64,000 nt of DNA from Microbotryum violaceum (Eukaryota), in NCBI GenBank assembly GCA_001244265.2, contig CDLV01000008.1:2108001-2172000 (forward strand), in the 5' to 3' direction. The first letter of the stretch is position 1. Each line of letters starts with the position of its first letter. Positions 3,061 to 33,582 of the stretch are shown in pieces. The translations under genes were made by a program, and so were the position numbers. The notes beneath the pieces are model-generated. The model ran no database searches, was not told where the DNA came from, and saw only the letters and a program-made list of their open reading frames with translations.

Positions 3061-3116
3061 CACTTCTTGTAGTCGTGCTGTAGCTCTTGAAGCGGTTGGT
3101 AGGCGACTGTACACGA

Positions 3117-11913: not shown

Positions 11914-11932
11914 TTTTTTTTGTCATTTTTTT
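11914..11932 (+). terminator. Pol III oligo(T) terminator of tRNA-Thr
   Basis: T8 immediately after the tRNA and a second T run; mirror A runs at 13679-13697. Confidence 0.8.
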
Positions 11933-12041
11933 GTTCGCGAAACATGCCTATCCATTCGGTTTCCCTCAACTAGAAATCCAAAACCCGTGCGGCGTAAGCT
12001 CAAAGCCCTCCCTCTGGGAGGCGCGAGGCGCTTAGGACTTA

Positions 12042-12244
<203 letters not shown>

Positions 12245-13248: not shown

Positions 13249-13365
13249 ATTGGATCACCAACCAGGTGGGTAACACTCCAGCATATCAGCTCAGTCTACA
13301 AGAACGCGGCAAGGCCTCTTGAACACTTGCAACCTACCTGTGCAGTCTGACTCAATCATTGTGAA

Positions 13366-13547
13366 AATAGCTTGCGCGCGCCTAGAACCTCCCTTGGCTT
13401 TCGCCAGCTCACTGACCCGAGGTTCTAGGTGGGTGCCCCTTTTCTCATATGTGTAGTATGCTAGCTCACTGACCCGAGGTTCTAGTGAATTACTATTGTT
13501 TGATCCTGTCTATCGTTCTGGAGCACCGCTGCACGCGGTGCTTCCAG
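13366..13547 (-). repeat. Repeat R, copy at inner end of right arm
   Basis: Reverse complement of 12064-12244. Confidence 0.85.
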
Positions 13548-13697
13548 GCAACTGGGCCGGGCGCGCGGATAAGTCCTAAGCGCCTCGCGCCTCCCAGAGG
13601 GAGGGCTTTGAGCTTACGCCGCACGGGTTTTGGATTTCTAGTTGAGGGAAACCGAATGGATAGGCATGTTTCGCGAACAAAAAAATGACAAAAAAAA

Positions 13698-13814
13698 TGC
13701 CATCAGAGAGGCTTGAACTCTCGACCTCCTGCTAAACTACTAATTACATAATCCCTAATGAAATAGGGGACTCGAATTACTAGGCAGGCGCAACTACCAC
13801 TGTGCTATGACGGC
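13698..13814 (-). tRNA. tRNA-Thr(AGT) with 44-nt intron (mirror copy)
   Basis: Exact reverse complement of 11797-11913. Confidence 0.93.
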
Positions 13815-13969
13815 GGTGGGGCGCCGGCTGGTTCCACTTTGGCAAATGCTTCCCGCTTTTTTTTTCTCTAATTTTCACACAAAAAAAATTCACACCCCAC
13901 TTCACTTCACTTCGAAATCGCCCTACCGCAGTCTTCGATACTCGAGTTAACAAGTGATACACCGACAAG

Positions 13970-16223
13970 ATGTCTACAGGAGACCCTGGGTCCCCACCGC
14001 TGGCACCGCCACCACCGGTGTCCGCCACCAGCGTCCAGCCACCTCGCGACCAGATCCCGATAAGCTCGAAGAAGACGCAAGCCACGGGCCCCGCCACCGC
14101 CGCACCCAACTATGCCGCCGCTGCGAGTCAGGCGACTCAGTCACCTGAACAACAGCAACAACAACAACAGCGTTCCAAGGCTCTGGGCAGCCTCCTACAA
14201 GCCATGGGTGCTGTACCCGGAAACCGCATGGATCGTTGGGTCCAGGCCATCTACTTCGCCGAACTCTACCCCGTCGCCACCGCCACATCGCTGAAATTCT
14301 CGGCCTTGAACGCGAACCGGTCTGTCGAGAACATCTTTGATTACGCCCTTGAAGTGACTCTGTCTCACCAGAGCGCCTCGCGAGCGTCTCATGCCGACAA
14401 GACCGATCTCGTGGCCTGCGTCACGAGGCTGTTATCGCCGATCTCTCCTATCTGCTTTGAGCCTGGAGTTCCTCTGCCGGACCACCTTGCAGCCTATCGA
14501 CCACAGATCCTAGGCGTACAACATTCATCAATCCTGCGTAATGGGGCGGCTCACCATCGCGTTACCGTTGGGTTCGTCACCGGCGAGGCACGTGACGCTG
14601 CGCTTACGACGCCCCCTGCTCTCACTTGGCGATCGGCGAAGGCCCGCTTCGCGAAATCTCACAGGTTCCACCATAACATGGTCGAGCTTCGAATCAACGT
14701 CGGTGTTCAAGGAGTGCCTTCCATGGATGCCATCATCAAATCGTTCCAATTACTAGTGCAGGACTTGTCAGGCAAGGGACATTCGTGCCAACTTGTGCAG
14801 GTTCTGCGCATTATCAGCGTGGACAACGCCTCGGCCTTTGCCCACGTTGCCGGAGACTACTCAGCTTTCCTACACTTCGATGACGACTCCCTGTTCAAAC
14901 GCCCTAACACGACCTTGAAAGAGATCCTACCTTCGAGAATCGGCCTTCCCACTCGAGGCATCCCCGTCACCGCCCTTCGCCATGACTATGAGAAGGAGGC
15001 GGCTTGCGGTAGGTGCCACTTCGTTGGTCACGTGGGAACCTGCGGACTGGATCAGGAGAGCAAGCGAAAGGAGGCTCACAACGGCAACGGCAACGGCAAC
15101 ACCAACGCCAACAAGAACACCATCACCAACGACACCAACATTGCGGAGGCCGAGGCCCCCATTCCTGTGCCGGTTGTTAACAGGATCGCATCACAGAATC
15201 GCTTCGCCGGGCTCGAGGTTGAGGAGGGACAGGAGGAAGCGGTAACTGGCCAGAGCGGACAGGGGCCAGAGGAATCGGGGGAGGAGGACGCTGGTGATAA
15301 GGCGGATGACGAGGACTCGGAGGACTCGGAGATGGAATCAGAGGCGACCGTGAAAACGGAGGCCATCATACTTAAGAGCGAGGACGAGTCGGTTTTAGAG
15401 GACTGCGGAGGATCCGATGGAGAGGTGATTGATGAGGATGAGGTGATGGCGGATGGAAGGGGCGAAACAGAAGGCAAGGTGGCGACGGAGATGGAGGAAA
15501 GGGAGGTGGCGACGGAGGTGGACGATGTGGACGAGGCAGGGGGAGCGACGAAAGCGGAGAACGCGGAAGCGACGGACTTAGGGGAGACGAACAGGCTGGA
15601 CAATGACGACGACAGCGACGCAACCGCAACCGCCGCCACCGCTTCCCGCGAATCGACACCCCACGAACCAACCCCACCTTTGTCACCCGAAACTCTTGCC
15701 AAGTCGCTTCGCGAGGGGAGGAGTGGGACAGGATCAGAGCTAACTGGGTTGAGCAGGCACGACTCGAGCGGGACCAAAGCATCGAGAGGAGGCTCGACGC
15801 TGAAACCCCTTTGGTGCGTCACAACTTTGCCACGTGGGATGAGGACGGTGAGATACGTTCCATCAATATCAGGGGGACCGCTTCGAAGTTCAAAAAGCCG
15901 GTAATGAAGAGGTCGCAGACTGCGGCGGACCTCAGTGACCCGAGTGACGAACCGACCGACGCCAAGCGAGTGATCATCAAAGGGAAGAGCCGCGTCGTTG
16001 TCAAGGATGGAACAGAGGGGCGGAGGGTGACGAGGTCGATGTCAGCGGCGGCGGCGATGCCGGTTGGCGTGACGAAAGTGGACCGAGGGAAAGCAAAGGG
16101 GGTAGCCGAGGAGAAAAGATGGTCCGACCACGAGCCGAGGACGATGTCCTGCCCGCCCTCCCCTCTTTGAGGACGTCACCACCGCCAAGAGCGCTTCGAC
16201 CTCAACTACCCATTAATGATTAA
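13970..16223 (+). CDS. LINE A ORF1 (homopolymer frameshifts near 15718 and 16137)
   Basis: Pro-rich start, [13 protein letters not shown] knuckle, acidic tract. The left-arm copy is open across these positions and ends ...PIND*. Confidence 0.87.
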
Positions 16224-19200
16224 GCACACCATCATCACCTGGAACGTGAGGAGGGGCATGGGGGTCCCGGAGAAACGACGTGACATTTACGACTACCTAT
16301 CCCTTTTCAAAGCATCGGCCATTCTCATACAAGAGCACTTCATCAGACCGCACCTCTGGCAACTCATCAAGGACGAGTACGAGGGCAAGCTCTTCATCAA
16401 CCAACATTGTCTGACTCTAATTCCGGCTGACTCCCCCCTGATCGACGCCGAGCTCTTGCGCACCCACTCGGCACTCGACGGCCGGCTCCTCGTCACGTCC
16501 TTTCGACTGCGGGGCGACATCAAAATTCTAGAAATCAACAACGTTTACGCGCCCGTTGACCCAAAGCAACGAGCGAAATTCTTTGACAAACTCTTATTTC
16601 ACAAAACACAGAAATCCCACCTCCGACTCCTTGGCGGTGATCTCAACGACTGCCCGCGCCCAGAAGTCGATCGGCGGAACCAAAGTCGGCGCGGCCACCA
16701 CTGGCCAATCCTGATCGGCAAGCTCGACTCGGCCTACACGGACTGCATCCGCTACAAACACCCCATCACCCCATCCTTCACTCGACCTAATCCCAATCGC
16801 AAGCGACCCAACTCCTTCTCCCGGCTTGACTACTTTCTCCTGCAACGGACACACCAAAAAAGACTCGATCAGGCCTCGACGATCTACGACTATCCCAAGG
16901 AGCTTTCCGATCACCGACCGGTCTTGATTGTGCTGGCTCTCTCAGACGATCCTGATGCGACCCTCCCACAGCTCAGCCTACCTACCACATCAAACCAACT
17001 ACATCGAATCAACACCACAACCTTTAAGACGGTGGAATTCCAGCGGATGATGGAAGGATGGTTGGAAGGGGCAAGCGGGGAGGAACCGGTGGGGAGCTCG
17101 AGGTCATTCTGAAGGCGTGCAGGGATAGGGGTGGGGAGATGGCGAGGAGGCTGCATCGGGAGCGGACGGAACGGATGGAGTATTTGGTGGGGAGGGTGCA
17201 GGATCTGGAGGCGATACCGGAATGGGGGGAGGCGGAAACGGCAGAATGGACAAGGACGTCCGAGGAACTCAAGCGGGCGGTCGAGGAGCGCGCGCGCCTA
17301 CTCCGGATCCGAGCCCACGTACCCGAGATCGCCTCCGAGGAACGACTGTCGCGGCCGGTCCACGCCAAGCTCGCGGCGCGGAACTCGGACTCCAAGATCA
17401 CAGCACTGCGCTTGAGCAACGGAGAGCTAACGCATGACATTGATGTCGCTCTTGACCACACGCAGGCGCATTTCCAGCGCCTCTACCGCATCGAGCCTCG
17501 TGACCCGGACCGCGTCGACCGACTTCGGGACGAATTCCTCGCGCCGATCAGGGCGGCGCGGACTTGCGACGACCCGCGCTCGGATCCTCTCTTTCTGCGC
17601 CGACTCTCGGAATCGCAGATCGACTTACTCCAGCGACCAATCACCGAGGACGAGGTCGTGGCCGCGATCGGGACGACGCACCCGGGGCGATCGCCGGGAC
17701 CGTCGGGCGTGCCCTACGAACTCTACCAGACCGCACCCAAGGCGTGGGCCAAGGTGCTGACCAAGGCCTACAACACGATGATAGAGCGAGGCTCACTCTC
17801 TCCCAAGCAGGGCCAAGGACTCGTGCGCCTCATCTTCAAGCGACACAAGAAGAATGCCGATCGCGCCGAACTTTCGTCGTACCGGCCGATCACCCTGCGC
17901 GAGTGCGCTTACAAGATCTTTACCAAGGTCTATGTCGCCCGCTTGAACCAGATTCTACCGGATCTCCTCCCGCCGCAGCAGCACGGATTCGTCAAGGACC
18001 GCCGATCGGCTGACGCTGCACTACACCTTCGTCTCCTGATCGAGGAAGTTGGCGCGCGCAGGACCGAGTTCCCCGCGGCCGCACTCTTATCTCTTGACCA
18101 ATCGTCCGCCTACGACCTCGTCGAGCATGACTGGATTTTTGCCATCTTTGACGCTCTGGGCGCTCCTGCCACCTTTCTTCGCGTGCTGAGGATGCTCTAC
18201 TCGGGTGACTCGACCTCGGCCCGCTACATCATCAATGGGTTCTTGACGGCGCCGGTACGACTGACGTGTGGGCTCGGCCAAGGGGACCCGGCGTCGTCGT
18301 CGGTCTGGGACATCGTGTTTCAGCCGTTTCTGGATGCTCTACACCGTCGAAACATCGCGCTGAATCTCTCCATACCTGCACTTCATCCGTACCCACAGAG
18401 CCGCGCCATTACATCGCTTGCTTTTGCCGATGACGTTGTCGTCGCCGTCGCGGGCTTGGGGTCACTCAACTTGCTCGATGACCTGGCGCTCGACTGGAGG
18501 CATGCAACGAATGGCCGGCTCAACACGGACAAGACGGTCGTCCTACCGATCGGACGCCGCTGGGACCCGGGGCAACGCCCGCTCGTCGTCAAGGCCGCAG
18601 GCGAGTCGCTCGAGTGGATCGGCCTCCCCTTCGACCCGAGCGGCGACACCGAACTCGCCTACGCGAATCTCATCGAACGCCTCGAGGCGACGCTGGAGGG
18701 GTTCAGCATCGCTGGCTCACACACCACACCCGTGCCTTTTACGTCAATCGGTACGCCATCCCCAAGATCCTGCACTTTCTTGCAGCCGACATCCCGCCGC
18801 CCGAAGTCGTCAAGAAGCTCGATGACATGCTCGTCGATTTCGTCCGTGGGGGCAAGGGCAGGACCAGCTACGGCAGAGATATCGTGTTCACAGCCAAGCT
18901 CAAGGGGGACTCGGGGTGATCAGGATGCAGGACGTCGTGGACGCGGTTGCGGCACGGATCTGGGACGTTCTTCTCGGCGGTTCGGGCGCGATCTGGCAAG
19001 GACTTGCGCGCGCGGCACTCCAGCGAGCTCAGTCCGACCTCGACCTGGCCACCGATCTCTGGCCACATCCATCCACTCCCATCCCCAGCGACCTCCATCC
19101 CCGATGGCGAGCAGCTTTGGGGGTTCCGAAACAGCAAGACGCGCAGGTCAACCCGAGGACCTTGACCACCGCGAACCTGCTCGCGCTTCCCACCTTGCTC

Positions 19201-20229
19201 GGCAGCCTCCACACCCCCATCAGAGGGAGACAGACCATCGACGCGGTTCATATACCTGACTACCTTCGTCTCCAGGGCTACCCGAAGGTGGCGGATCTTT
19301 ACCGGCGCGAGTTGTATGCGGGTGGGGGTTTCACCTTTGGACGCCGCCGGCGGATGTGCTCGGCGACAACAGCGAGTACGATCGACGCGGGCTCCCGCAG
19401 CGACTGGCAATCGCGGCCTGGTACCGGTTCACTGTCGATCGACACAAGAACACGCCCTTGGCGGTGGCGGTGGCGGCAGGACGGCTCAACGTGCCTCCCC
19501 GGATCGGCACCAGCGCACCACTCGAGGCGATTCTCCCCAAGCCCGTGGCCCGCTTCGCAATGGAGCAGCGCCTTCCGGACCCGGTGCTTCCACAGCAGGC
19601 GAGCCAGTACAAGCTGCTGAACATGGCTCGACCGTACACCATCCGTCGCATCCGCCGGGTCCTGAACGCGAAGGCCTTTACCAACACGCTCGGGCTCAAG
19701 GGACCACCGCAGCCGGACGACCTCAGGAGCTTTTGGAAGGCGGTCAACTCGAAGGCACTGACGGCGAGGGAGAGGGAAGTTTGGTTCAAGCTGATTCTCC
19801 GCTTCACCCCGACGCGCAAGCTGCAACACCAACAGAATCACGACACTTCTCCGCGTGCCTTGTCTGCGAAGCGCCGGTGGACGACACCGACCACTACTTT
19901 TTCGACTGCGTTGACTCTGGGAACGTTTGGATAGCGGCAAGGAGCGTGCTCTGCGACGCACTGGGGCTCGACACGATCGACAACACGCATTACACGGCTG
20001 TTCAACGCATGTTCGGACTTCCGAAGCTCAAGGCCAGTCTACGCGATCAAGAAGGAGCGGGGAGGACGATCGAAATATTCACCGGGCTGGTCTTGGAGAT
20101 GATCAGCAGCGGGAGGTGGGGGATGCAGAAGTGGGGACGAGGATGGAGGGTGTTGGGAGGAGGAGGATCATCTTGGAGGAGAGGTTGAAGCTGAGGGCGG
20201 GAGGAGCTTGGGGGAGGAGAGGGCAGTAG
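16216..20229 (+). CDS. LINE A ORF2: APE endonuclease, reverse transcriptase, C-terminal zinc finger (several single-base frameshifts)
   Basis: APE and RT motifs in successive ORFs 16216-17112, 17058-, 18614-, 18916-, 19356-, ending 20229. Confidence 0.92.
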
Positions 20230-20887
20230 AGGCTGGGTTCGACTTTCCCCCCACCACCACTACACACACACACACACCAAATTCTCGTGACATCATTTTC
20301 TCCTACTGTACACTAAATAGATCGCTTTCATCTTTCATTTGTTACAGGTTCATCGTTGCGGATCATGGACCATCTCGCGATTTGGCGTCGACTCGGTGTG
20401 GCTCGCGCTCTTCGGCTTCGGGGTTCTGAGTCAAGGGAGGGATCAGCGGACACAGGCAGAAAGTCGGCTTTGAGGGGCCAGGGACTGCCGATGGGGGAGG
20501 TTTTGAGGGACCTTCACCGCGTCTTGTTGTGACTGAGCAGAGACTTGGAGCGTCGAGGGTCGTGGTGGTTGCGCAGTCGTGCTCTTGTCTTCGTCTCGAC
20601 CGAGTGGGAAGTGGCTGTGGGGTGGGCCTTCTGTCGTTAGTACATTTCTTTTCTTTCTTTTTCTCTTCATCTCTCTTTCTCTCTCTCATTAGTCTCCGGG
20701 GGGGAGCAACCGCTTGGCTAGGGCATTTGAATCCGAATCTCGGATTGGTGGACTTGGCTCGTTTCTCGCACTTTTGCGGGCGGTTTGTGTTATCATCGTA
20801 GTCTTCCATCTAGTTTTTCCGTAGGCCAAAACAGGGGGAACAGGAACTGGGGGCAATATGATGAACGTTTTCTACAAAAAAAAAAAA

Positions 20888-22488
20888 TTCGCAAGCTTCG
20901 TCGGCTTGTGAACGTGGTTCGGTTCCCAGGGAGGGAGGATCGTGTCAAGCGTTTCCGTGATGGGACTTCTCAGAGCGATAGGAAACGCTTCTGGAGATGG
21001 CTTCATGACCGGTTTGCGTCTGCTGTGGAGCAGGACACCCACTGGCGGCTCATGTACGACGTGACGCCGACGCGCAAGAGGCAGCATACTCAGGGTCATG
21101 CCTCTTCGCCGACGTGTCTGTTCTGCGGCAACGATGCAGCGGTCATCGAGACGGTGTCGCACTACTTCTTCGAGTGCGCGTACTCGACCAGCTTCTGGGG
21201 TGGGGTGCTTCGCATTCTGTTCGACAAGCTGGGCATCGAGGATACCGACGTCGATCCGTCGACGTTCACTCCGGAGCAGCTGACTATGGGGCTCCCCCTT
21301 TTGCGGGTCGTGGGAGAACGACCTCGAAATGGATGTGGGTTCGGCTGGCTTGCGCGATCGGCTTCCAGCGGCTGCACCTGCTCCGCTGGCGCGTTCATCA
21401 GCGGTTCGAGCTGGACAAGGTCGTGGCCCCTCCCTCGCTCCCCAGTGCACTCAGAGCGTTCGAGCGAGATTTTCTCTCTCGAGCGGGTTTTGTGCCTGGG
21501 GCTCGAGATTGGGAGGTGTGATGACCGAGTTAAGTCCTTCCTTCCCATTTTCCTCCCCTCCTTTCCTCCCTTCTTTTTCGGAGGTCGACTCCTCTTTTAG
21601 AAGCTGACTGTCTTGGAACTTGTTGCGCAGTGGAAGGCTGCGCACCTCTCCCTCTCTCTCTCTACTTTGCGCAGTAGCGGTTTTTTGTTCTTGGATGGAT
21701 CGGCAAGCCAGGTCGATTGTCTTTGCGTTGAAGGCTTTGTGAAGTTTTTCCCTCTCCTTTCCCCCCTTTTTCCCTTCCCTTCCTCTTCTCGTTCCTGTTG
21801 CTCAATTGTTGACTACGCTTCAGCCACTTCTCCTTTTACTCCTAAGCCGTGTGTTGGATTCCGTTGAATGGTTCGTTCGTTCGCGTTGGTCAAGATCTAC
21901 GGCATGGCTCGGAAGGAAGGTCGCTCGTTTCTGGTCAATATCCTCCCGTCAACGCGAGGCTCGTTTCGTTGTACTGGATCGCTTTTCTCTCGGCCCCGAC
22001 GGCTCAACAGCCAGCACTCGAGATTCAGCCAAGGGAGGACATCAGGCGCTGTCGGGGTGACGAGTAGCTGGGGCTTGGCTGCGGCCTGTTAGTCCCTGGG
22101 GACCTCTACCTCCGGCTTCGACCCCCTACCTTGGCCCCTCGGGTGTGTTCCCCTCCTCTCTGTCTTAGTATTCCTGGTTCTCCGTATCCCCAGTCGTGAC
22201 TTTCCGTATACTCTCCCCCTTCTTTCTCTAGGCGCTCTTGCTTGGTTTTCGAGTATCTTCGCTCCCGCGCTTGGGACGTGAAGCGGCAGCAGTACTCACC
22301 GCCCGTTGGAGTCCGCGTTAGGTGCTCGGCGGGTTTTGATCTGCGCAGCGCTCTTTGCGCGCAGGGGTTTGACTTTCACCCAACTGCTTGCCGTCGTTGC
22401 TTTATAACCTCCTTTAGCTCTTTTTGTAGCGGTCCCAGCCAACCCGAAGGATTGCAATTTATGAGCCCCAGTCAAAAAAAAAAAAAAA
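20888..22488 (+). mobile_element. LINE B, 5'-truncated copy (1.6 kb)
   Basis: Starts at the equivalent of 27584 of the full B copy, directly after the A12 tail of LINE A; ends in A15. Confidence 0.93.
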
Positions 22489-22544
22489 TCGTGTACAGTC
22501 GCCTACCAACCGCTTCAAGAGCTACAGCACGACTACAAGAAGTG

Positions 22545-24226
22545 ATGCCGGATCCGCCCGGCCCACCCCCGCACCCGCCCAACGCTCCGTGGGCTGGTGA
22601 CGTGTTGAGAGATGAATCACTCAACACGGAAACCCGTGAGACGGTCACTGGAGGAACCGTTAATCCTCCAGCCTGGTCTGCCCAGGCTTCTCGGGCTCGA
22701 TTGGACCATGAGAAGTCGATGCAGAAGGCTTTCAAAGCCCTTGGCATCGTACCATCCTCCAAGTCGACCCGCCGGCTGATGGTACTGTTGTATGACCCTT
22801 CCAGCCCGCCTTCGCAGGCGCCGGCTCTCGCACGAGCTGCTCAAAGGGCGGTACGAAACAACGCGATGCCGGCCTCCAACGTGATCCGAGTCATCATGGA
22901 TGGTACTGGGTCCCCAAGAGGCCCTGTACAGATTGCGCTGCGTAAGCACTTTGGGCTGGCCGAGACGCCATTCATGTTCGCGCGGCCCGAGGGCGCCGAG
23001 CTTGACCCCGAGGTCGAGAAGCTCTTCTCGAAATGTGTGAAGCTGAACACGATCGTGACGAAGGCAACAAAGAGGTTCCCGATTGCTCGTCATATGTACG
23101 AGCTCGTGTTCGAATCCGACCAGGCCTGTCTCGAAGCCGCTGCAGCGGGTCCATTCCCCTATCACGGAAAAGAGATGGTCACCGAGCTCCCGAGTGTTTC
23201 CCCCCTAAACCACATCGTCCAGGTGCGATTCACCTTACCCTCCTCTTCCAGCGCGATTCCCGCTTCCGTGCTCCGAAAATCTCTCGAAGATGCTCTCACT
23301 TCCTCCTTTGGCCACGCTGGTTTCACGCAAGGGTATACCCTCATGCAATTACAGCGGGGCCTCGCGGTCGATCCGAACGGTGACCCGATGGCCATGACCG
23401 AAGACGGGTTCCACTGCGCGTACCTTCGCTTACATGCTGATCTTTTCCAAGGCTCCACCGAGACGCAGAAGGCTGCGCTCAACGCCGCCTTGCCACAAGA
23501 GATCGAGATCCTGGGCGCCAAGTACGGCTTGCGACACGAATTTGAGACGCACTACTGCGCCGTGTGCGATCGCGCTGGACACCAGTGGGGGCTTGCAGGA
23601 AGCCGGTTTCGACTCCGGCCACCGCCGCCCCTGTTCCGGGGGCCTCGACTTCGACTTCGACTTCGACCACCGGCTTCCGAGTTGCTGGAAAGAATGGGAA
23701 GCACGGTGGGCCCGCCGCATTGAACTCTCGTGCCTCTGGCACGAACATGATCCAGCTGGGACCTCGTGCTAACCCCGCAGGTGCAGCGACCGGCAACAAG
23801 GACGATGCGAACGACGGCGACAGTGACGACGACGACGACGACGGCGAATCGGTCGCTTCGACCGAACCGGAGGGCGGCGACACTGGGAAAGAGACGTTGA
23901 CCCGTGCGACCACGGGCCCAACAAAGGAGACGCAGACGACGACAGCGGCGCCCGTTTCGACCCCGACCTCTCCTTCGCCTTCTGCTTCTGCTCCGGCATC
24001 GCCTTTGTCCGGTGGCACGTCGGAATCATCGGCAACCTCGACGACCTCGATAGCCTCGACGAGTCCTCGACGCCTTCGTTCGAGCTCGGCACCCGGCAAC
24101 CGACGTGTCACCCGGGCGGAATCCGCCATGATCCTCGGTGCATCAGGGGGTGACGGCTCAGGGGGTCACAGGTCCGAGATGACCGAATTCGAGGGGGCGG
24201 CGCTGATCCAATTTATTCATGATTGA
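22545..24226 (+). CDS. LINE B ORF1 (frameshift in G run near 23590)
   Basis: MPDPPGPPP start, CAVCDRAGHQWGAC knuckle, ends ...FIHD*. Confidence 0.86.
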
Positions 24227-27200
24227 GTCTCTCACCGTGTTGACGTTCAACGTCCGATCGATCAAGAACGCAGTCAACCAAGTCAAAATCATCCGCTATC
24301 TCAAAACCCTTCGGCCGGCCCCTGCGGCCATTCTCCTGCAAGAGCACCACCTCAGCTACAACGCGTCGCGCGAAGGCTTCGAGAGTGCTTGGCCAGGGGC
24401 TTGTATTCGTTTCACTCCTCATGTCCTTACCCTCATACCCGATGGCTCACCTTTGGCGGGCCATCTCCTTTCCTCTACCCCGGTCGTCTTTGCAGGAGCT
24501 CCTCGTTTCGACGGTCGGATTCTGCGCTCGGTGTTTCGTCTTGAGGAGCTCGATGTTGAGATCATCAACATGTACGCGCCGGTACAGGAGGACGATCGTC
24601 GCGACTTTTTCGGGCTCCTGCATTTCAACGCCCCGAGACCCAAGACTCTTCGGATCTTGGCCGGCGATCTCAATGATTGTCCGGATGTATCGGTCGACCG
24701 AGTGTCCATCACCGATCGCGCTTGGACTCCTGTATCGCACTGGCAGACTTTGCTGTCAAAGATCGCGTTCAAGGCACTCGACACGGTCCGACATGTCCAT
24801 TCTTGCACCCCCGCATTCACTCGTCCTCACTACCGTGGTAGAGGGGAGGAGCGAAAGATTTGCTCGTGGTCGCGGATCGACTATATTCTTGTCCAATGCA
24901 GTTGGGCAAACCGGTTGTTGAGCGCTTCTACGCTCTTCGACGCGCCCTGTTCGGACCACAGACCTGTAGTTGCGACTTTCGCATTGCCTACGTCGAACGC
25001 TGATGCCGAACCCCCCTTTCTCTTCCCTCTACGAGCGATTTCATTTCGAGGCTCAACCCAACGGTCTTTGACGATCAAGACTTTGTCGCATCGATTCCCG
25101 GGGTCGTCGACGAGGTCTATCGAAGGCTCGAGGGGACCGCTCCGCTCGGCGACGTCTATGACGCCGCTCTGCGGGCGGTTGCAGTCGCTGGCCATGCACG
25201 ATACCGCTCGACTCGTGCCGACATGCGCCGACTGCGGTCCGAGAGCCAATCCGTCATGGAGGCTTTGGAGGCACGCGGTGAGCACATGAATGAGGCCGAG
25301 CGCGATGCGTATGCTTTTGCCAAGTCGCGGTTGGACCAGTTGGCGGTAAAGGAGGCTCAGTGGCTGCGCATTCGTGCGCATGTGCCGTCAGTCGACTCGA
25401 GGGAAGGTCAATCGGCAAGCATTCGCACGCGTCTCAACCGCCGGAGTCGCCAGACGAGCATCGTCTCGCTGGAGGATGTGGATGGCACCGAGACCGTTGA
25501 CATGCAGGAGGCGCTGGGTATTGCTTCACGGCACGCACAGTCGCTCTTCACGCCGGACCCAGCTCGTGGCGACCCGACGAACCCACGTCGGTCCCTGTTC
25601 GACCCTATTCGCGCGGCGAAATGCTACGATGACGACCGCTCGGACCCTACGTTCGGTCGTCGGCTGCCTCGTCAAGCGAGAGTGGCGCTTGACGAGCCCT
25701 TCACCCTCCTCGAGGTTGAAGCGGCGTTGAAGAAGACGGATTCGGGGCGATCACCGGGGCCCTCGGGCATTCCGTACGAGCTCTTCAAGGCGCTGCCAAC
25801 CTACTTTGGTCCCAAGCTGTTGGATTTGTTCAACTCGATTTGGGAGGGGGTAAAATGACGGCGTCCTTGGCAGAGGGGCTGGTGCGGCTTTTGCCCAAGA
25901 ACAAACCGGGGGCCAATCTGAAATCACTGGGGGCATATCGACCGATCACACTGCGCGAGACAACCTACAAGGTCCTCAGCAAGGTCTTGGTGGCGCGACT
26001 CAATGGGGTGCTCGGCGAGCTTTTGCCGCCGGCGCAACACGGGTTCATGCCATCAAGACGTTCAGCGGACGCGGGAAGTCATCTCACTCTCCTTCTCGAA
26101 AAACTCCGATCACTCGGTACTGATGTTTTCCCAGAGGGCGCCCTCTTGTCCTTGGATCAGCAGAGCGCGTACGATCGGGTCGATCACGCATGGATCTTCG
26201 ACGTCTTCGAGGCCTTTGGCTTTGGTGAGCGTTTCATTTCCCTGCTGCGCGCTCTGTACGATCCCGAGACTCTGGGGGTGCGCTACCTCATCAATAGGTT
26301 CCCCACGGAGTTGGTGCGGTTGCTGTGTGGTCTCGGTCAGGGGAATCCCCTCTCGTGCCCGGTTTGGAACATCACGTTCCAGCCCTTCCTCGACGCCCTC
26401 GTTCGGCGCGGGATCGCGCTCGACCTGCAGAAGGTGTGGCCAGGGGGGCCACGTGCGCAGCTTACGCATCTGGCGTTTGCCGACGATGCTGTGGTGGTGG
26501 TGGAGTCACCGGCGGCATTGTCGAAGCTGGAAACGCTGTCGCAGACGTGGTACGAGGCAACCAACGGGAAGACCAACACGGACAAGACGCTGGTGCTACC
26601 ACTCGGACCGAACTGGCTTCGGGACGAGACTGCGCAGGCGCTGCCAACGGTGCAGGAGGGGGAGAGCTTCAAGTGGTGCGGCTATGCCTTCTTTCGCCAC
26701 GGTGACTCGAAACTGTTTTGGACCCATGTTCTTGACAGGATCAAAGCCAAGACCCGCGCCGCTGGAGACCGGACACTTTCGCCGAGTGGGAAGGTCTTCT
26801 ATGCCAACGCTCACATCATCTCGACGGTCCTCCACGTGCTGTCCTTCGACATACCGCCTCAATGGTTCATTAAGGCGGCGGAGACAGCACTTACGGATTT
26901 TGTTTGGGGAGGAGCAGGGCGAAATACCGTCGCTCGCGATTTCGTGTTCCAGGCTCGGGAGGACGGTGGCTTGGGCTTGATTTTAATCGGCGACATCGTT
27001 CATTCGGTGGCGCTTCGATTTTGGGATGCTGTGGCGGGCTCGAACGAGGCGATCTGGGCGCCCCTAGCTCGCGAGAGCTGGAGGTCCCTCGTCGCTGCGA
27101 CCCGCGATTTCAGTCCGTGGGGGTTCTTCAGCAGCACGGCTCGGGTCGAGAAGCTGTATCGCGACTCGACGCGCTGGGGGGCAGTCGTTGCAGCGGCCAG

Positions 27201-28218
27201 GGTCACCTTACCAACCATCAAGTCCGAACTCCTTACGCTCCCCGAATTGCTCTCGCTTCCGCCTCGCCTCCCTTCACTCTATGCTGAAGGTGCCAAGCAC
27301 GCATATGACGATGCGGACGCAGTGGCGAAGTTTGCGCAGATCGCGGACCTGTACTGGAGGGACGAAGGAAAGGGCTGGGCTCTGGTTGGTCATCGACGCG
27401 GTTTCTGGCAGCACTCTAAGGAACCAGCCCTGCAGCACGAGCACGTGTGGTCGCGCGTGGGTCAGTTGCTCAAGGCGAAAGCCTTGCTGCCCAAGACCGC
27501 GTTGCGACCTGCTCGGATACCTCTCAAGGAGGCTCCCCGTCCTCGGTGCTTCAACTTCTTTGGGCTCACCCGACCGTTCACTATTCGCAAGCTTCGTCGG
27601 CTTGTGAACGTGGTTCGGTTCCCAGGGAGGGAGGATCGTGTCAAGCGTTTCCGTGATGGGACTTCTCAGAGCGATAGGAAGCGCTTCTGGAGATGGCTTC
27701 ATGCCCGGTTTGCGCCTGCTGTGGAGCAGGACACCCACTGGCGGCTCATGTACGACGTGACGCCGACGCGCAAGAGGCAGCATACTCAGGGTCATGCCTC
27801 TTCGCCGACGTGTCTGTTCTGCGGCAACGATGCAGCGGTCATCGAGACGGTGTCGCACTACTTCTTCGAGTGCGCGTACTCGACCAGCTTCTGGGGTGGG
27901 GTGCTTCGCATTCTGTTCGACAAGCTGGGCATCGAGGATACCGACGTCGATCCGTCGACGTTCACTCCGGAGCAGCTGACTATGGGGCTCCCCCTTTTGC
28001 GGGGTCGTGGGAGAACGACCTCGAAATGGATGTGGGTTCGGCTGGCTTGCGCGATCGGCTTCCAGCGGCTGCACCTGCTCCGCTGGCGCGTTCATCAGCG
28101 GTTCGAGCTGGACAAGGTCGTGGCCCCTCCCTCGCTCCCCAGTGCACTCAGAGCGTTCGAGCGAGATTTTCTCTCTCGAGCGGGTTTTGTGCCTGGGGCT
28201 CGAGATTGGGAGGTGTGA
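24219..28218 (+). CDS. LINE B ORF2: APE endonuclease, reverse transcriptase, C-terminal zinc finger (frameshifts near 25015 and 25848)
   Basis: GDLND, SDHRPV, SPGPSG, YRPITL, QHGF, LGQGNPLS, AFADD, GGLGL, CLFC..ETVSHYFFEC. Confidence 0.92.
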
Positions 28219-29188
28219 TGACCGAGTTAAGTCCTTCCTTCCCATTTTCCTCCCTCCTTTCCTCCCTTCTTTTTCGGAGGTCGACTCCTCTTTTAGAAGC
28301 TGACTGTCTTGGAACTTGTTGCGCAGTGGAAGGCTGCGCACCTCTCCCTCTCTCTCTCTACTTTGCGCAGTAGCGGTTTTTTGTTCTTGGATGGATCGGC
28401 AAGCCAGGTCGATTGTCTTTGCGTTGAAGGCTTTGTGAAGTTTTTCCCTCTCCTTTCCCCCCTTTTTCCCTTCCCTTCCTCTTCTCGTTCCTGTTGCTCA
28501 ATTGTTGACTACGCTTCAGCCACTTCTCCTTTTACTCCTAAGCCGTGTGTTGGATTCCGTTGAATGGTTCGTTCGTTCGCGTTGGTCAAGATCTACGGCA
28601 TGGCTCGGGAAGGAAGGTCGCTCGTTTCTGGTCAATATCCTCCCGTCAACGCGAGGCTCGTTTCGTTGTACTGGATCGCTTTTCTCTCGGCCCCGACGGC
28701 TCAACAGCCAGCACTCGAGATTCAGCCAAGGGAGGACATCAGGCGCTGTCGGGGTGACGAGTAGCTGGGGCTTGGCTGCGGCCTGTTAGTCCCTGGGGAC
28801 CTCTACCTCCGGCTTCGACCCCCTACCTTGGCCCCTCGGGTGTGTTCCCCTCCTCTCTGTCTTAGTATTCCTGGTTCTCCGTATCCCCAGTCGTGACTTT
28901 CTGTATACTCTCCCCCTTCTTTCTCTAGGCGCTCTTGCCTGGTTTTCGAGTATCTTCGCTCCCGCTCTTGGGACGTGAAGCGGCAGCAGTACTCACCGCC
29001 CGTTGGAGTCCGCGTTAGGTGCTCGGCGGGTTTTGATCTGCGCAGCGCTCTTTGCGCGCAGGGGTTTGACTTTCACCCAACTGCTTGCCGTCGTTGCTTT
29101 ATAACCTCCTTTAGCTCTTTTTGTAGCGGTCCCAGCCAACCCGAAGGATTGCAATTTATGAGCCCCAGTCGAAAAAATAATAAAAAAA

Positions 29189-29732
29189 TTCTCGCATCTT
29201 GCGGGCGGTTTGTGTTATCATCGTCGACTTCCATCTAGTTTTTCCGTAGGCCAATCAGGGGGAACAGGAATTGGGGCAATATGATGAACAAGTCCTACAA
29301 AAAAGAAATCTACAAGCTCTTCCCTGGTTTCGAGTATCTTCGCTCCCGCGCTTGGGACGTGAAGCGGCAGCAGTACTCACCGCCCGTTGGAGTCCGCGTT
29401 AGGTGCTCGGCGGGCTTTGATCTGCGCAGCGCTCTTTGCGCGCAGGGGTTTGATTTTCACCCAGCTGCTTGTCGTCGTTGCTTTATTACCTCTTTTAGCT
29501 CTTTTTGTAGCGATTATAGCCAACCCGAAGGATCGTAATTTATGAGCCCAGTTAAACAAAAAATATGTTATGAGCCCAGTTAGACAAAAAATATGTTATG
29601 AGCCCAGTTAGACAAAAAAAAAAAAAAGTGTTATCATCGTAGTCTTCCATCTAGTTTTTCCGTAGGCCAAAACAGGGGGAACAGGAACTGGGGGCAATAT
29701 GATGAACGTTTTCTACAAAAAAAAATAAAAAA
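29189..29732 (+). mobile_element. Cluster of short 3'-end fragments: A variant 29189-29308, possible micro-A TCTACAA 29309-29315, B variant 29316-29563, two micro-B 29564-29591 and 29592-29627, A 29628-29732
   Basis: Each piece matches the extreme 3' end of family A or B and ends in its own A-rich tail. Confidence 0.88.
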
Positions 29733-29733
29733 T

Positions 29734-32700
29734 GCTCGCGGCGCGGAACTCGGACTCCAAGATCACAGCACTGCGCTTGAGCAACGGAGAGCTAACGCAT
29801 GACATTGATGTCGCTCTTGACCACACGCAGGCGCATTTCCAGCGCCTCTACCGCATCGAGCCTCGTGACCCGGACCGCGTCGACCGACTTCGGGACGAAT
29901 TCCTCGCGCCGATCAGGGCGGCGCGGACTTGCGACGACCCGCGCTCGGATCCTCTCTTTCTGCGCCGACTCTCGGAATCGCAGATCGACTTACTCCAGCG
30001 ACCAATCACCGAGGACGAGGTCGTGGCCGCGATCGGGACGACGCACCCGGGGCGATCGCCGGGACCGTCGGGCGTGCCCTACGAACTCTACCAGACCGCA
30101 CCCAAGGCGTGGGCCAAGGTGCTGACCAAGGCCTACAACACGATGATAGAGCGAGGCTCACTCTCTCCCAAGCAGGGCCAAGGACTCGTGCGCCTCATCT
30201 TCAAGCGACACAAGAAGAATGCCGATCGCGCCGAACTTTCGTCGTACCGGCCGATCACCCTGCGCGAGTGCGCTTACAAGATCTTTACCAAGGTCTATGT
30301 CGCCCGCTTGAACCAGATTCTACCGGATCTCCTCCCGCCGCAGCAGCACGGATTCGTCAAGGACCGCCGATCGGCTGACGCTGCACTACACCTTCGTCTC
30401 CTGATCGAGGAAGTTGGCGCGCGCAGGACCGAGTTCCCCGCGGCCGCACTCTTATCTCTTGACCAATCGTCCGCCTACGACCTCGTCGAGCATGACTGGA
30501 TTTTTGCCATCTTTGACGCTCTGGGCGCTCCTGCCACCTTTCTTCGCGTGCTGAGGATGCTCTACTCGGGTGACTCGACCTCGGCCCGCTACATCATCAA
30601 TGGGTTCTTGACGGCGCCGGTACGACTGACGTGTGGGCTCGGCCAAGGGGACCCGGCGTCGTCGTCGGTCTGGGACATCGTGTTTCAGCCGTTTCTGGAT
30701 GCTCTACACCGTCGAAACATCGCGCTGAATCTCTCCATACCTGCACTTCATCCGTACCCACAGAGCCGCGCCATTACATCGCTTGCTTTTGCCGATGACG
30801 TTGTCGTCGCCGTCGCGGGCTTGGGGTCACTCAACTTGCTCGATGACCTGGCGCTCGACTGGAGGCATGCAACGAATGGCCGGCTCAACACGGACAAGAC
30901 GGTCGTCCTACCGATCGGACGCCGCTGGGACCCGGGGCAACGCCCGCTCGTCGTCAAGGCCGCAGGCGAGTCGCTCGAGTGGATCGGCCTCCCCTTCGAC
31001 CCGAGCGGCGACACCGAACTCGCCTACGCGAATCTCATCGAACGCCTCGAGGCGACGCTGGAGGGGGTTCAGCATCGCTGGCTCACACACCACACCCGTG
31101 CCTTTTACGTCAATCGGTACGCCATCCCCAAGATCCTGCACTTTCTTGCAGCCGACATCCCGCCGCCCGAAGTCGTCAAGAAGCTCGATGACATGCTCGT
31201 CGATTTCGTCCGTGGGGGCAAGGGCAGGACCAGCTACGGCAGAGATATCGTGTTCACAGCCAAGCTCAAGGGGGACTCGGGGTGATCAGGATGCAGGACG
31301 TCGTGGACGCGGTTGCGGCACGGATCTGGGACGTTCTTCTCGGCGGTTCGGGCGCGATCTGGCAAGGACTTGCGCGCGCGGCTCTCCAGCGAGCTCAGTC
31401 CGACCTCGACCTGGCCACCGATCTCTGGCCACATCCATCCACTCCCATCCCCAGCGACCTCCATCCCCGATGGCAAGCAGCATTGGGGGTTCCGAAACAG
31501 CAAGGCGCGCAGGTCAACCCGAGGACCTTGACCACCGCGAACCTGCTCGCGCTTCCCACCTTGCTCGGCAGCCTCCACACCCCCATCAGAGGGAGACAGA
31601 CCATCGACGCGGTTCATATACCTGACTACCTTCGTCTCCAGGGCTACCCGAAGGTGGCGGATCTCTACCGGCGCGAGTTGTATGCGGGTGGGGGGTTTCA
31701 CCTTTGGACGCCGCCGGCGGATGTGCTCGGCGACAACAGCGAGTACGATCGACGCGGGCTCCCGCAGCGACTGGCAATCGCGGCCTGGTACCGGTTCACT
31801 GTCGATCGACACAAGAACACGCCCTTGGCGGTGGCGGTGGCGGCAGGACGGCTCAACGTGCCTCCCCGGATCGGCACCAGCGCACCGCTCGAGGCGATTC
31901 TCCCCAAGCCCGTGGCCCGCTTCGGAATGGAGCAGCGCCTTCCGGACCCGGTGCTTCCACAGCAGGCGAGCCAGTACAAGCTGCTGAACATGGCTCGACC
32001 GTACACCATCCGTCGCATCCGCCGGGTCCTGAACGCGAAGGCCTTTACCAACACGCTCGGGCTCAAGGGACCACCGCAGCCGGACGACCTCAGGAGCTTT
32101 TGAAAGGCGGTCAACTCGAAGGCACTGACGGCGAGGGAGAGGGAAGTTTGGTTCAAGCTGATTCTCCGCTTCACCCCGACGCGCAAGCTGCAACACTAAC
32201 AGAACCACGACACTTCTCCCGCGTGCCTCGTCTGCGAAGCGCCGGTGGACGACACCGACCACTACTTTTTCGGCTGCGTTGACTCGCGGAACGTCTGGAT
32301 CGCGGCAAGGGGCGTGCTCTGCGACGCACTGCACTCGGTGAGACACGATCGAGGACGCCCAGTACACGACATTGCAACGGCTCTTTGGCCTCCCCAAGCT
32401 CAAGGCCAAGCTCAGCGAACAGGAAGGTGCGGGCAGGACGATCAAGATCTTCACGGGGATGGTTTTGGAGATGATCAGCAGTGGGAGATGGAGGATGCAG
32501 AAGCACGGGACGAGAATGGAAAGCGTGGAGAGGAGGAGGGTGGTACTGGAGGAGAGGATGAAGTTGAGGGCGGGAGGAGCAAGGGGCGGGCAAGGGCAGT
32601 AGAGGCTGGGTTCGATTTCCCGCCACCATCCCACACACACACACACACATCAAATCACACTTCCTCTCTCTCAAAAAAAAGAAAGAAAAAAAAAAACTGT

Positions 32701-33294
32701 GTACTAAATATCTTGCTTTCATCTTTCATCTATTACAGGTCTGCTTTCGTTGCTCATGGACCGGCTCGCGATTTGGGATTGACTCGACGGTGGCTCGCGC
32801 TCTTTGGCTTCGGGGTTCTGAGTCAAGGGCGGGATCAGCAGACACAGGCAGAAAGTCGGCTTTGAGGGGCCAGGGACTGCTGAGGTAGAGGTTTTGAGGG
32901 GCCTCCACCGCGTCTTGTTGTGACCGAGCATAGACTTGGGGCTTCGTGAGTCAGGGTAGTTGCGCAGTCGCTCTCCTGTCTTTGTCTCGACCGAGTTGGG
33001 AAGTGGGTGCGGGGGTGGGCCTCTTGTCGTTAGTAAATCGTTTCATTACTCTTTCTCTTTGTCTCTCTCTCTCCTTCTCTCTCTCATTCGTCTCCTGGGG
33101 GGGGAGCAACCGCTTGACTGGGGGGGCACTTTAATCCGAAGTATCGGATTGGTGGACTTGGCCCGTTTCTCGCATCTTGCGGGCGGTTTGTGTTATCATT
33201 GTCCGCTTCCATCTAGTTTTTCCGTAGGCCAATTGCGGGGAGCAGGAATGGGGGGCGATGAACATGTTCTACAAACAAACAAATAAAAACAAAA
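29734..33294 (+). mobile_element. LINE A, 5'-truncated 3.56 kb copy with degenerate 3' half
   Basis: Starts at the equivalent of ~17369; RT intact; premature stops near 32101 (TGA) and 32197 (TAA); diverged 3'UTR; degenerate A-rich tail. Confidence 0.92.
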
Positions 33295-33316
33295 CCTCAT
33301 GAGTTTCAATACTTGG

Positions 33317-33582
33317 TGTTGCAACAAGGACTAAGAGGTACTCTACGACTCAGCTCCGAGATACACGAGTGAGATGATGAGAATAGCGTGGCTTTGCAGT
33401 AACTAACCTAAGAGGTACTCCACGACTCAGCTCCGAGATACACGAGTGAGATGATGAGAATAGCGTGGAGAAGGAACCCAGAAGGAAAAAAGACGCAAAG
33501 ACAAAGATAGGCGCGCGCGCAGAATAAAGTATTAACCAAGACTAATAGCAATGAGTTAGGCTCTCAGACCCCACTTCTAACA
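33317..33582 (-). repeat. Copia 3' LTR (266 bp, with internal 61-bp duplication)
   Basis: Direct repeat of 37981-38168; TG...CA ends. Confidence 0.93.

Follow-up and report, generated by a model that had tools for sequence, protein, structure and literature searches.

Organization of the locus

The window analyzed in this work, a stretch of 64,000 nt from the anther-smut fungus Microbotryum violaceum, a host close to M. lychnidis-dioicae, carries on its minus strand an intron-bearing tRNA-Thr(AGT) gene (13698-13814), which was identified by Rfam (RF00005, 46.6 bits compared to a gathering score of 29) and whose anticodon AGT was read by eye from the Rfam alignment. The intron is about 45-48 nt long (a 48-nt insert in the anticodon loop), and a T8 terminator is located downstream of the gene (13690-13697, A8 on the plus strand). 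ARAGORN missed this gene and called no tRNA in the whole window, the intron being the likely cause. Upstream of the tRNA 5′ end, a spacer of 74 nt (13815-13888), delimited on the sequence and bridged by a short-read contig of run X17, holds a T9 run (13857-13865) and an A8 run (13881-13888) that abuts the 5′ end of a LINE at 13889. The 27,498 nt of the window that do not belong to transposable elements include five A/T runs of at least 8 nt, three of which are found at the tRNA-Thr gene.

The spacer is followed by a LINE array of 19.4 kb (13889-33294) that comprises two L1-type families, named A and B. An earlier note, based on the sequence alone, had located this array about 75 bp upstream of tRNA-Thr(AGT), with the 5′ end of all copies towards the tRNA. 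Both statements are confirmed by the measured distance of 74 nt from the 5′ end of the Rfam-identified tRNA and by the LINE protein matches, which lie within 13958-32558 and are all on the plus strand; no such match was found in 33283-64000. Seven pieces were counted, or nine if two 28-nt end repeats are included, a number close to the 9-10 copies initially proposed. The existence of two families is also corroborated, but not their strict alternation, since the order from the tRNA outward is A, B, B, A, B, A, A.

All seven pieces are on the plus strand. Piece 1 (13889-20887) is a full-length family A element of 7.0 kb with Exo_endo_phos, RVT_1 and zf-RVT Pfam domains and an A12 tail. Its 5′ end was defined by comparison with a relative carried by the metagenome contig L001 and by a short-read contig joint at 13898; its ORF1 spans 13970-15904 and its ORF2 extends from 16171 to about 20226 across at least five single-base assembly deletions. 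Piece 2 (20888-22488) is the 3′ 1.6 kb of a 5′-truncated family B element (zf-RVT, A15 tail) and shows 99.25% identity with positions 27583-29185 of piece 3. The latter (22489-29188), delimited from Pfam domains and reading frames, is a full-length family B element of 6.7 kb, whose ORF1 starts at 22545 and whose ORF2 spans 24207-28215 after adding one base each at 25010 and 25845; these extra bases are present in four of four short-read runs. Three small pieces follow: (i) piece 4 (29189-29315), found by alignment, is the last 127 nt of a family A element with a degenerate A-rich tail, from a subfamily resembling the L001 copy; (ii) piece 5 (29316-29627) is a family B 3′ end of about 310 nt, with about 88-90% identity to piece 3, an A14 tail and 2.9 copies of a 28-nt unit (element end plus A6) at 29540-29619; and (iii) piece 6 (29628-29733), also found by alignment, is the last 90-100 nt or so of a family A element with an A9 tail and an A-rich filler. 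Piece 7 (29734-33294), delimited by self-comparison and alignment, is a 5′-truncated family A element of 3.56 kb with a degenerate A-rich tail.

All six internal joins lead from an A tail to the next piece without any host DNA, as the earlier note had described. More generally, the 5′ border of each of the seven pieces of the window is located directly at an A run, which is the host A8 for piece 1 and the preceding tail for the six others. All seven also have an A run as 3′ end, and five are truncated at their 5′ end. The proposal that the newest copies are proximal and the oldest ones distal is not supported. Piece 7 is a mosaic that is 100% identical to piece 1 over 1.6 kb (17369-18967), about 99% identical up to the equivalent of 19766, and then only 65-85% identical (a different 3′ module), and the sequence of piece 6 is the same as that of the 3′ end of piece 1. 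No gradient of age is seen from one end of the array to the other.

Mirror duplication and quality of the assembly

The beginning of the window (1-12244, minus strand) is a mirror copy, i.e. the reverse complement of 13366-25604, as revealed by self-BLAST (99.902% identity over 12,247 columns). This arm includes a tRNA gene (11797-11913, plus strand), piece 1 (about 4719-11722), piece 2 (3117-4718) and a part of piece 3 (1-3116). Therefore, the second tRNA/LINE junction is not independent and both junctions correspond to a single event. The inverted duplication of 12.2 kb is cut by the start of the window, and its inner ends are located within a dispersed repeat, at which the short-read contigs are interrupted. 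It probably does not originate from a foldback read, because the non-palindromic spacer of 1.1 kb is not expected from a simple foldback.

The two arms show 12 differences, 11 of which are 1-base indels in single-base runs, and the homopolymer error rate of the assembly is about one per kb. At most of the sites where ORF2 is broken, one additional base is present in the short-read contigs or in the mirror arm, which indicates that these breaks are assembly errors. Since 1-base homopolymer errors are so abundant, intact copies and copies with stop codons cannot be told apart from the assembly. The contrast previously drawn between intact proximal copies and diverged or stop-bearing distal ones is thus not confirmed, the ORF2 of both full-length copies being split over several frames by such errors. 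The tRNA gene, the spacer and the 5′ end of LINE A (13519-14565) are covered by one contig of 1047 nt from the short reads of run X17, with 3 differences; among the joins of the array, short-read bridging covers this tRNA/LINE-A junction only. Furthermore, 22 runs from eight studies contain a fraction of 0.66-0.78 of the sampled words of 13450-23449.

Proteins and relatives of families A and B

The ORF2 proteins of A and of B both carry Exo_endo_phos, RVT_1 and zf-RVT domains (Pfam), with an AP-type endonuclease upstream of the reverse transcriptase (RT). The closest solved relative of the RT is human L1 ORF2p (E-value 6e-23, compared to 5e-14 for R2). Judging from these sequences, A and B are two related L1-type LINE families of Microbotryum. 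Among the 120 listed relatives of ORF2, those found outside Microbotryum belong to other Microbotryomycetes (40-47% identity), and seven of the 120 are gene models that fuse a LINE RT with copia or gypsy Pol domains. Therefore, LINE copies located beside or inside other elements are common. Piece 1, piece 7 and L001 seemed to share a -1 frameshift in ORF2-A, located between the RT and the C-terminal region; it was rejected as an artefact of the choice of ORF, because the true frame at this place is a third one and homology to the unbroken ORF2-B follows the frames 3→2→1→3→2.

ORF1 aligns between A and B and has one C-x2-C-x4-H-x3-C motif, read by eye and conserved in all 12 aligned ORF1 proteins; no zf-CCHC Pfam match was obtained in ORF1. 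All 24 similarity matches of ORF1 are from Microbotryum, none being found outside the genus. For ORF1-A, the protein atlas search gave a best score of 0.89, below the meaningful level, the PDB sequence search gave no match below an E-value of 0.87, and the AlphaFold model (12 sequences) had a mean pLDDT of 34.7 and no usable fold. Scans of viral contigs with ORF1 and ORF2 revealed no relatives.

The metagenome contig L001 carries a relative of family A, with 77-90% identity, that is inserted inside a copia gag gene. Neither Rfam nor ARAGORN detected any tRNA in its 12,388 nt. A tRNA-like stretch upstream of this element was discarded: it has no Rfam support at E-values up to 10, was not called by ARAGORN, and corresponds to the copia leader. 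This copy speaks against a strict TRE5-like specificity. It also lacks an A run at its 5′ border, and A-tract targeting is therefore not strict in the family either.

Joins found in short-read contigs

Short-read contigs revealed tail-to-head joins that are absent from the window: a B tail followed by the 5′ end of A at 13898 (X17), a B tail followed by the last 300 nt of A (X10 and X2), and an A end followed by the last 110 nt of B (X17). It follows that building arrays is a habit of the A and B elements. The depth of LINE contigs is about 10 times that of single-joint contigs, which is read here only as "multi-copy", depth not being equivalent to copy number.

Two other joints, 13729→13893 (X17, depth 12.5) and 13729→29674 (X2, depth 8.7), connect LINE A, in the same relative orientation, with a tRNA-like 3′ part. 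The support for each is a match of 21-24 letters, with an unread stretch between the two sides, and the joint of X17 is additional to the X17 contig that carries the tRNA/LINE junction of the window. These single-depth contigs of X17 and X2 may represent further tRNA-LINE junctions. The association of a tRNA 3′ part with the 3′ end of LINE A could have been read as a SINE, an interpretation that was rejected since the tRNA part has the antisense orientation relative to the LINE tail. The joints 15227→23825 and 23845→32390, whose sides are 20-25 letters of GAC repeats, were dismissed as low-complexity matches. The joint expected for an empty site (about 13888 to about 33295) was not found in the contigs of four runs, a type of data that cannot show absence.

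Neighborhood of the array

On the other side of the array, a Ty1/copia LTR retrotransposon is integrated on the minus strand (33317-38168), as indicated by its RVT_2, rve and gag Pfam domains, its repeats and alignment. Its LTRs (33317-33582, with an internal duplication of 77 nt, and 37981-38168) have TG..CA ends and are flanked by an intact 5-nt target duplication, CTTGG (33312-33316 and 38169-38173). The host DNA left between this element and the array amounts to about 21 nt only, so that, with the LINEs removed, it would lie about 95 nt upstream of tRNA-Thr. The region located to the right of the array is genic and includes Mak16, the gene of a fungal transcription factor and a REG1-like gene that is 99% identical to a protein of M. 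lychnidis-dioicae. The host genes for TBP, Brf1 and Bdp1 lie outside the window. Two kinds of retrotransposons are thus found within about 95 nt of tRNA-Thr, yet the right flank consists of ordinary genes and is not a transposon graveyard.

Discussion

The explanation that we retain for this array, although we give it no better than an even chance of being right, is that A and B target A tracts and not the tRNA gene. Both families would integrate by target-primed reverse transcription at A runs: the endonuclease would nick the T-rich bottom strand and the T run would prime on the poly(A) tail carried by the RNA of the element. With such a priming, the new copy would take the orientation of the A run and would leave a fresh, longer A tail; as each tail would be a new target, one insertion would invite the next. 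The expected outcome is an array of full-length and 5′-truncated copies on the same strand with nothing between them. Here, it would have been seeded in the A8 tract located 67-74 nt upstream of the tRNA-Thr gene. The three copies in one tail of the 28-nt unit formed by the B terminus and A6 look like repeated abortive priming on this tail. The anatomy of the array, its two families, the A tract found at every 5′ border in the window and the further A/B tail-to-head joins detected elsewhere in the species are observed; what we infer in this scenario is where the nick falls, in which order the events took place and that the A tract rather than the tRNA is recognized. The L1-like RT, the behavior of Zorro3 (see below), the L001 copy devoid of neighboring tRNA and the seven fused gene models out of 120 also argue for it, as does the concentration of A/T runs at the tRNA gene. 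Indeed, since long A/T runs are rare in this GC-rich genome and several of them lie in tRNA flanks, the elements may land near tRNA genes above chance without any contact with Pol III.

However, the location of the array, divergent and 74 nt upstream of the tRNA, is exactly what a TRE5-type targeting predicts and would hardly be expected of a single locus taken at random; the reference genome is reported to have 134 tRNA genes in about 26 Mb (PMC4469406). It is possible, though in our view doubtful, that the insertions were directed by Pol III as in Dictyostelium TRE5, a protein of the element (ORF1 by analogy) contacting TFIIIB or some other component of the complex that transcribes the tRNA gene. 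The nick would then occur about 75 nt upstream of the tRNA gene and entry at this fixed site would push earlier copies outward, the A8 tract being only the local nick or priming site. The array alone does not discriminate between these explanations, because an identical arrangement results when copies insert repeatedly, by target priming, into whatever A tract there is, the tails of earlier copies among them. TRE5 elements insert 44-54 nt upstream of tRNA genes in the opposite orientation, and NLTR-B inserts 39-64 nt upstream (PMC5911963), and A and B share with TRE5 the two ORFs and the APE-RT-zinc finger order. The copia element with its intact target duplication, inserted upstream of the same tRNA beside a genic region, and the X17 and X2 joints point in the same direction, and they count, like the lack of a 5′ A run in L001, against a mere search for A tracts. 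Against the involvement of Pol III stand the single independent locus, its second junction being a mirror image, the family A relative inserted in a copia gag, on a contig where no tRNA was found, the absence of an age gradient, the shortness of both tRNA-like joints (21-24 letters) and the restriction to the genus of all 24 matches of ORF1. Moreover, the locus was picked post hoc, and chance LINE-tRNA neighbors get flagged when many windows are considered. If Pol III were nevertheless the guide, which we put forward tentatively, A and B would be the first fungal and the first non-amoebozoan APE-type LINEs that home upstream of genes transcribed by Pol III. They would be convergent with TRE5, would share their landing strip with copia, would use A8 only for priming and would build tRNA-anchored arrays by repeated entry at one fixed position.

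Selection could also account for the locus without any targeting beyond the taste of L1 elements for AT-rich DNA: in a compact genome, insertions would survive where they do no harm, in the strip upstream of a tRNA gene, the resident transposon would in turn be a harmless target and the array would grow. The presence of both copia and LINEs in one strip of about 100 nt beside genes would be consistent with this, and so would the L001 copy and the seven of 120 chimeric gene models, which place LINEs inside or beside other elements. We nonetheless consider it improbable, since random insertion would interrupt earlier copies internally and in both orientations, leaving unexplained that six of six internal joins are exactly at A tails and on a single strand. 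Much less probable still is that the array, or its adjacency to the tRNA, is artefactual and stems from a noisy long-read assembly, for instance from a collapsed or mis-joined repeat. The homopolymer errors and the truncated 12.2 kb inverted duplication, whose inner ends fall in the dispersed repeat that interrupts short-read contigs, would be in line with such an artefact; however, a short-read contig from an independent run bridges the tRNA gene, the spacer and 670 nt of LINE A with three differences, 22 runs of eight studies carry most of the sampled words, and like tail-to-head joins occur in short-read contigs.

A and B recall several known systems. They resemble human LINE-1, the closest solved RT, by their AP-type endonuclease, presumed target-primed reverse transcription and frequent 5′ truncation, but differ from it by another type of ORF1 and by arrays of a kind that is not the rule for LINE-1. 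The human element preferentially nicks T-rich/A sites. Zorro3, which belongs to the L1 clade of LINEs and comes from Candida albicans, uses poly(A) tracts as integration sites, has poly(A) on both flanks and is often full length (PMC7175516, PMC3956500). Like A and B, it is a fungal L1-type element with two ORFs, its ORF1 carrying zinc knuckles, to which the CCHC-like motif of A and B may correspond, and its ORF2 combining an endonuclease and an RT with a zinc region at the C-terminus; for the copies of the window, A runs on either side, a putative integration into poly(A) tracts of intergenic or promoter sequences and many full-length insertions would be further likenesses (PMC7175516, PMC3956500). 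However, ORF1 of A and B has one CCHC-like motif compared to two in Zorro3, the L001 relative has no A run on its 5′ side, and the passages of these papers devoted to Zorro3 do not mention head-to-tail arrays of two families (PMC7175516, PMC3956500).

TRE5-A and its relatives from dictyostelids also have two ORFs, with an APE-RT-zinc finger ORF2, and they lie some tens of nt upstream of the tRNA gene, transcribed in the opposite direction and with their 5′ end facing its own (PMC5911963, PMC5006619). The differences concern the distance (74 nt here compared to 44-54 nt), the observation of one locus and of one relative away from any tRNA, the host, which is a basidiomycete, and ORF1 of A and B, which has no detectable similarity outside Microbotryum. 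Cnl1 from Cryptococcus neoformans is another basidiomycete non-LTR element that clusters at particular places, the telomeres, but it is of CRE type (PMC7175516), a type defined by a restriction-like endonuclease downstream of the RT and by the lack of an AP endonuclease, whereas A and B carry an AP-type endonuclease and adjoin ordinary genes. In the literature searched, as far as the relevant passages of PMC5911963 go, the targeting of adjacent tRNA genes by APE-type LINEs concerns only dictyostelid amoebae and the known fungal tRNA-targeting elements are LTR elements, among them Ty1, which inserts upstream of Pol III genes (PMC5911963). The LTR element found next to the array is likewise of copia type, with a 5-nt target duplication and a location about 95 nt upstream of a tRNA, but it is a single case. 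Neither Pol III nor A-tract targeting is described for Microbotryum in the literature searched, and the word tRNA is absent from the main texts of the Microbotryum transposon papers examined, whose supplements may hold relevant annotation.

If Pol III targeting were true, the safe-haven strategy would have been invented independently for a third time, here in a basidiomycete and in a genus whose dozens of complete assemblies and dated events of recombination suppression would allow insertion rate and insertion site to be traced through time. If A-tract targeting is the correct explanation, the array would illustrate, cleanly and in nature, how a LINE that seeks poly(A) creates its own hot spot, and would caution that, in GC-rich genomes, LINEs can be drawn to tRNA flanks without any contact with Pol III.

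Results

A LINE block occupies 13889-33294 on the + strand, with Exo_endo_phos, RVT_1 and zf-RVT domains (Pfam) in its frames. In translated searches, element proteins matched only the + strand in 13958-32558 and only the - strand in 2-11653, with zero matches in 33283-64000. Self-comparison, a listing of A runs, the junction sequences and two alignments defined seven pieces belonging to two LINE families, A and B: (1) a full-length A copy (13889-20887), (2) the 3′ 1.6 kb of B (20888-22488), (3) a full-length B copy (22489-29188), (4) the last 127 nt of A (29189-29315), (5) the last ~310 nt of B (29316-29627), (6) the last ~100 nt of A (29628-29733) and (7) a 5′-truncated A copy of 3.56 kb (29734-33294). 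All seven carry an A run at their 3′ end and all six internal joins lead from a tail into the next piece without other DNA, as the earlier note had described; the 5′ border of piece 1 directly adjoins a host A8 (13881-13888). Piece 5 ends in 2.9 copies of a 28-nt unit made up of the element terminus and A6; with these included the total is nine, near the nine or ten copies initially claimed. The families had also been said to alternate, which holds just loosely for the succession A,B,B,A,B,A,A. Overall, this is a genuine and clearly delimited feature whose first description was largely correct. The 5′ end of family A (13889-13915) consists of 5-nt repeats whose number varies, differing in other runs and in L001, a metagenome contig carrying a family A relative.

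The array starts 74 nt upstream of the 5′ end of a tRNA gene. Rfam detected one tRNA gene at 11797-11913 (+) and another at 13698-13814 (-), with 46.6 bits each (gathering score 29); ARAGORN detected none in the window. The aligned fold is a normal cloverleaf whose anticodon loop carries a 48-nt insert, the anticodon read by eye is AGT (Thr), and a T8 run directly follows the gene. The DNA downstream of the tRNA (12073-13547) is a dispersed repeat with hairpin-forming units, copies of which have a 57-nt start-to-start spacing, another (89%) lying ~508 nt away; in two short-read runs, contigs break off or become frayed within 13518-13547, ~150 nt away from the 3′ end of the tRNA.

Positions 1-12244 are the reverse complement of 13366-25604 (99.902% in self-comparison), giving 12.2 kb arms, the left one cut by the window start. 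Since 11 of their 12 differences are single-base indels within homopolymer runs (the other being a substitution), the arms are practically identical, and the assembly represents a noisy consensus of long reads. Both tRNA genes, with the LINE junction beside each, therefore count as one event, not two. The inner arm ends fall in the dispersed repeat where short-read contigs break, and the inverted duplication may be a true palindrome or else a mis-join within this repeat. A simple foldback read is disfavored as its origin, since it would not leave the 1.1 kb spacer between the arms, which is not itself palindromic.

Immediately past the array lies a Ty1/copia element (33317-38168, - strand) bounded by TG..CA LTRs and flanked by a perfect target duplication of 5 nt; a few base differences and an internal duplication of 77 nt distinguish the two LTRs. 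Approximately 21 nt of host DNA separate it from the array, so that without the LINEs it would lie ~95 nt upstream of the tRNA gene, and copia elements of this fungus may also prefer tRNA upstream regions. Farther right, a 1197-residue frame (44545-48138, - strand) shares 99% identity with a REG1-like protein of M. lychnidis-dioicae and is followed by Mak16 and one fungal transcription factor gene, the right flank thus being ordinary genic DNA. Two intergenic stretches near the REG1-like and Mak16 genes are a long G run followed by A7 (44376-44400) and an A17 (49411-49427), the longest A run of the window, which is without a LINE.

The nearest solved proteins of the LINE reverse transcriptase are human L1 ORF2p (E 6e-23), with R2 proteins behind (5e-14). 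The ORF2 proteins of A and B have 36-49% of residues in common, and their ORF1 proteins are scarcely similar (E 0.023) but share a C-x2-C-x4-H-x3-C motif. All 24 relatives of the family A ORF1 are Microbotryum proteins (top match 97%). The family B ORF2 occupies three frames in the assembly; contigs of all four runs compared contain one extra base at 25010 and one at 25845, which make 24207-28215 a single frame. The family A ORF2 follows the frame path 1, 3, 2, 1, 3, 2, homology to the unbroken family B protein takes the same path, and short-read contigs or the mirror arm contain extra bases at 17090, 18696/18702, 19329, 19850/19853 and 20132/20137. Single-base homopolymer deletions break frames in 16171-20226, 24207-28215 and 60913-63999, roughly one per kb, including a host transcription factor gene whose Fungal_trans domain is split across adjacent frames. 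Gene calls on this assembly need prior polishing, and "intact" versus "broken" is not readable from its copies; both full-length copies are probably intact and others may be too. Among the long relatives of the family A ORF2 that were listed, seven of 120 are gene models fusing the LINE reverse transcriptase with copia or gypsy Pol domains. Public Microbotryum gene models of these LINEs (P0027, P0028, P0032, P0043 and others) reach 1800-2600 residues, some representing dozens of member sequences; they probably merge ORF1, ORF2 or neighboring array members.

Given these homopolymer errors and the identity of piece 6 and part of piece 7 to piece 1, the proposal that intact copies are proximal to the tRNA and diverged or stop-bearing ones distal is not borne out. 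Piece 7, the most distal, matches piece 1 at 100% over 17369-18967 and ~99% to 19766, then at 65-85%, and is thus a mosaic with another 3′ module; this abrupt switch suggests that subfamilies recombined or that template switching took place between them. Piece 6 matches the end of piece 1 exactly, unlike piece 4, which is closer to the tRNA. Judged from these identities, there is no age gradient along the array. The 3′ modules of family A are of at least three types: piece 1/6, piece 4/L001 and piece 7 (19767-20887 versus 32160-33294).

Between 0.66 and 0.78 of sampled words of 13450-23449 are present in 22 short-read runs (8 studies), and contigs of four of these were compared with 13420-33419. 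A 1047-nt contig from run X17 (three differences) spans 13519-14565, placing the tRNA-LINE junction outside this assembly as well; in run X10, a flank contig ends at 13871 and a LINE contig begins at 13899. Other contigs contain tail-to-head joins absent from the window, from a B tail to A from 13898, from a B tail to the last 300 nt of A and from an A end to the last 110 nt of B, so such arrays occur elsewhere. A joint from 19172 to 16230, interrupted by four additional letters, occurs in all four runs and involves no A tail; it stems from an A copy that is rearranged or nested elsewhere in the genome. Two single-contig-depth joints, 13729 to 13893 (X17) and 13729 to 29674 (X2), link 21-24 nt that match the tRNA 3′ portion with family A in the window's relative orientation; they are leads only, which may represent further tRNA-LINE junctions. 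The empty-site joint from 13888 to 33295 is not among the joints listed for the four runs, whose contig sets are silent on absence.

Scanning metagenomes with an ORF1 alignment matched 46 stretches and yielded one relative, L001 (12,388 nt). Its family A element (~2885-9022, 77-90% identity to the window copies) is flanked by both parts of a copia gag-pol whose gag is interrupted. No A run was found at its 5′ border, nor any tRNA in the whole contig (Rfam, ARAGORN). The flanks (2785-2885 and 9023-9372) include a possible imperfect target duplication of ~17-20 nt, with ~100 nt unexplained on the 5′ side.

Discussion

Based on their domains, poly(A) end and truncation, we classify these elements as APE-type, L1-like LINEs; having an AP-type endonuclease, they are not like Cnl1 of Cryptococcus neoformans. 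The array geometry fits that of TRE5, a dictyostelid LINE described as sitting 44-54 nt upstream of tRNA genes in opposite orientation, with an ORF1 protein that binds TFIIIB (passages of PMC5911963), although this likeness concerns one locus and the host makes membership of the TRE lineage unlikely. Comparable targeting through the Pol III complex, as first proposed, would also agree with a copia element occupying that strip too, with the genic neighborhood and with the two 13729 leads. We nevertheless consider it rather doubtful: there is one independent locus only, the L001 copy lies on a contig devoid of tRNA genes, the age gradient is missing and an A8 run stands at the array border. Moreover, scanning many windows will flag precisely such a case of a LINE beside a tRNA, and with the 134 tRNA genes in ~26 Mb reported in PMC4469406, one chance neighbor per few genomes is not far-fetched. 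Random insertions merely surviving in a harmless strip would be an improbable origin, and an assembly artefact a very improbable one.

The non-LTR elements next to tRNA genes in the table of a 2018 review are from dictyostelids only (PMC5911963), and other organisms are known to have restriction-like-endonuclease elements that insert within tRNA genes (part of PMC4640811). In the literature searched, we found no account of Microbotryum LINE arrays linked to tRNA or poly(A), and "tRNA" is absent from the main text of the Microbotryum transposon papers checked.

Insertion at A tracts, to which we give about even chances, would explain the array and could account for the tRNA proximity without contact to Pol III factors. 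The T-rich bottom strand, once nicked, would prime on the element poly(A) (target-primed reverse transcription), and the new copy would adopt the orientation of the A run and leave a longer fresh tail as the next target. Repetition of this process would yield (i) a single strand, (ii) joins at tails, (iii) numerous 5′-truncated pieces and (iv) the 28-nt end repeats. The window elements behave like Zorro3, an L1-clade LINE of Candida albicans described in parts of PMC7175516 and PMC3956500 as targeting poly(A) tracts and having poly(A) on both flanks, whereas the L001 copy does not. The non-transposon part of the window (27,498 nt) contains five A/T runs of at least 8 nt, three of them at this tRNA gene, and a poly(A)-seeking element could therefore reach tRNA genes above chance.
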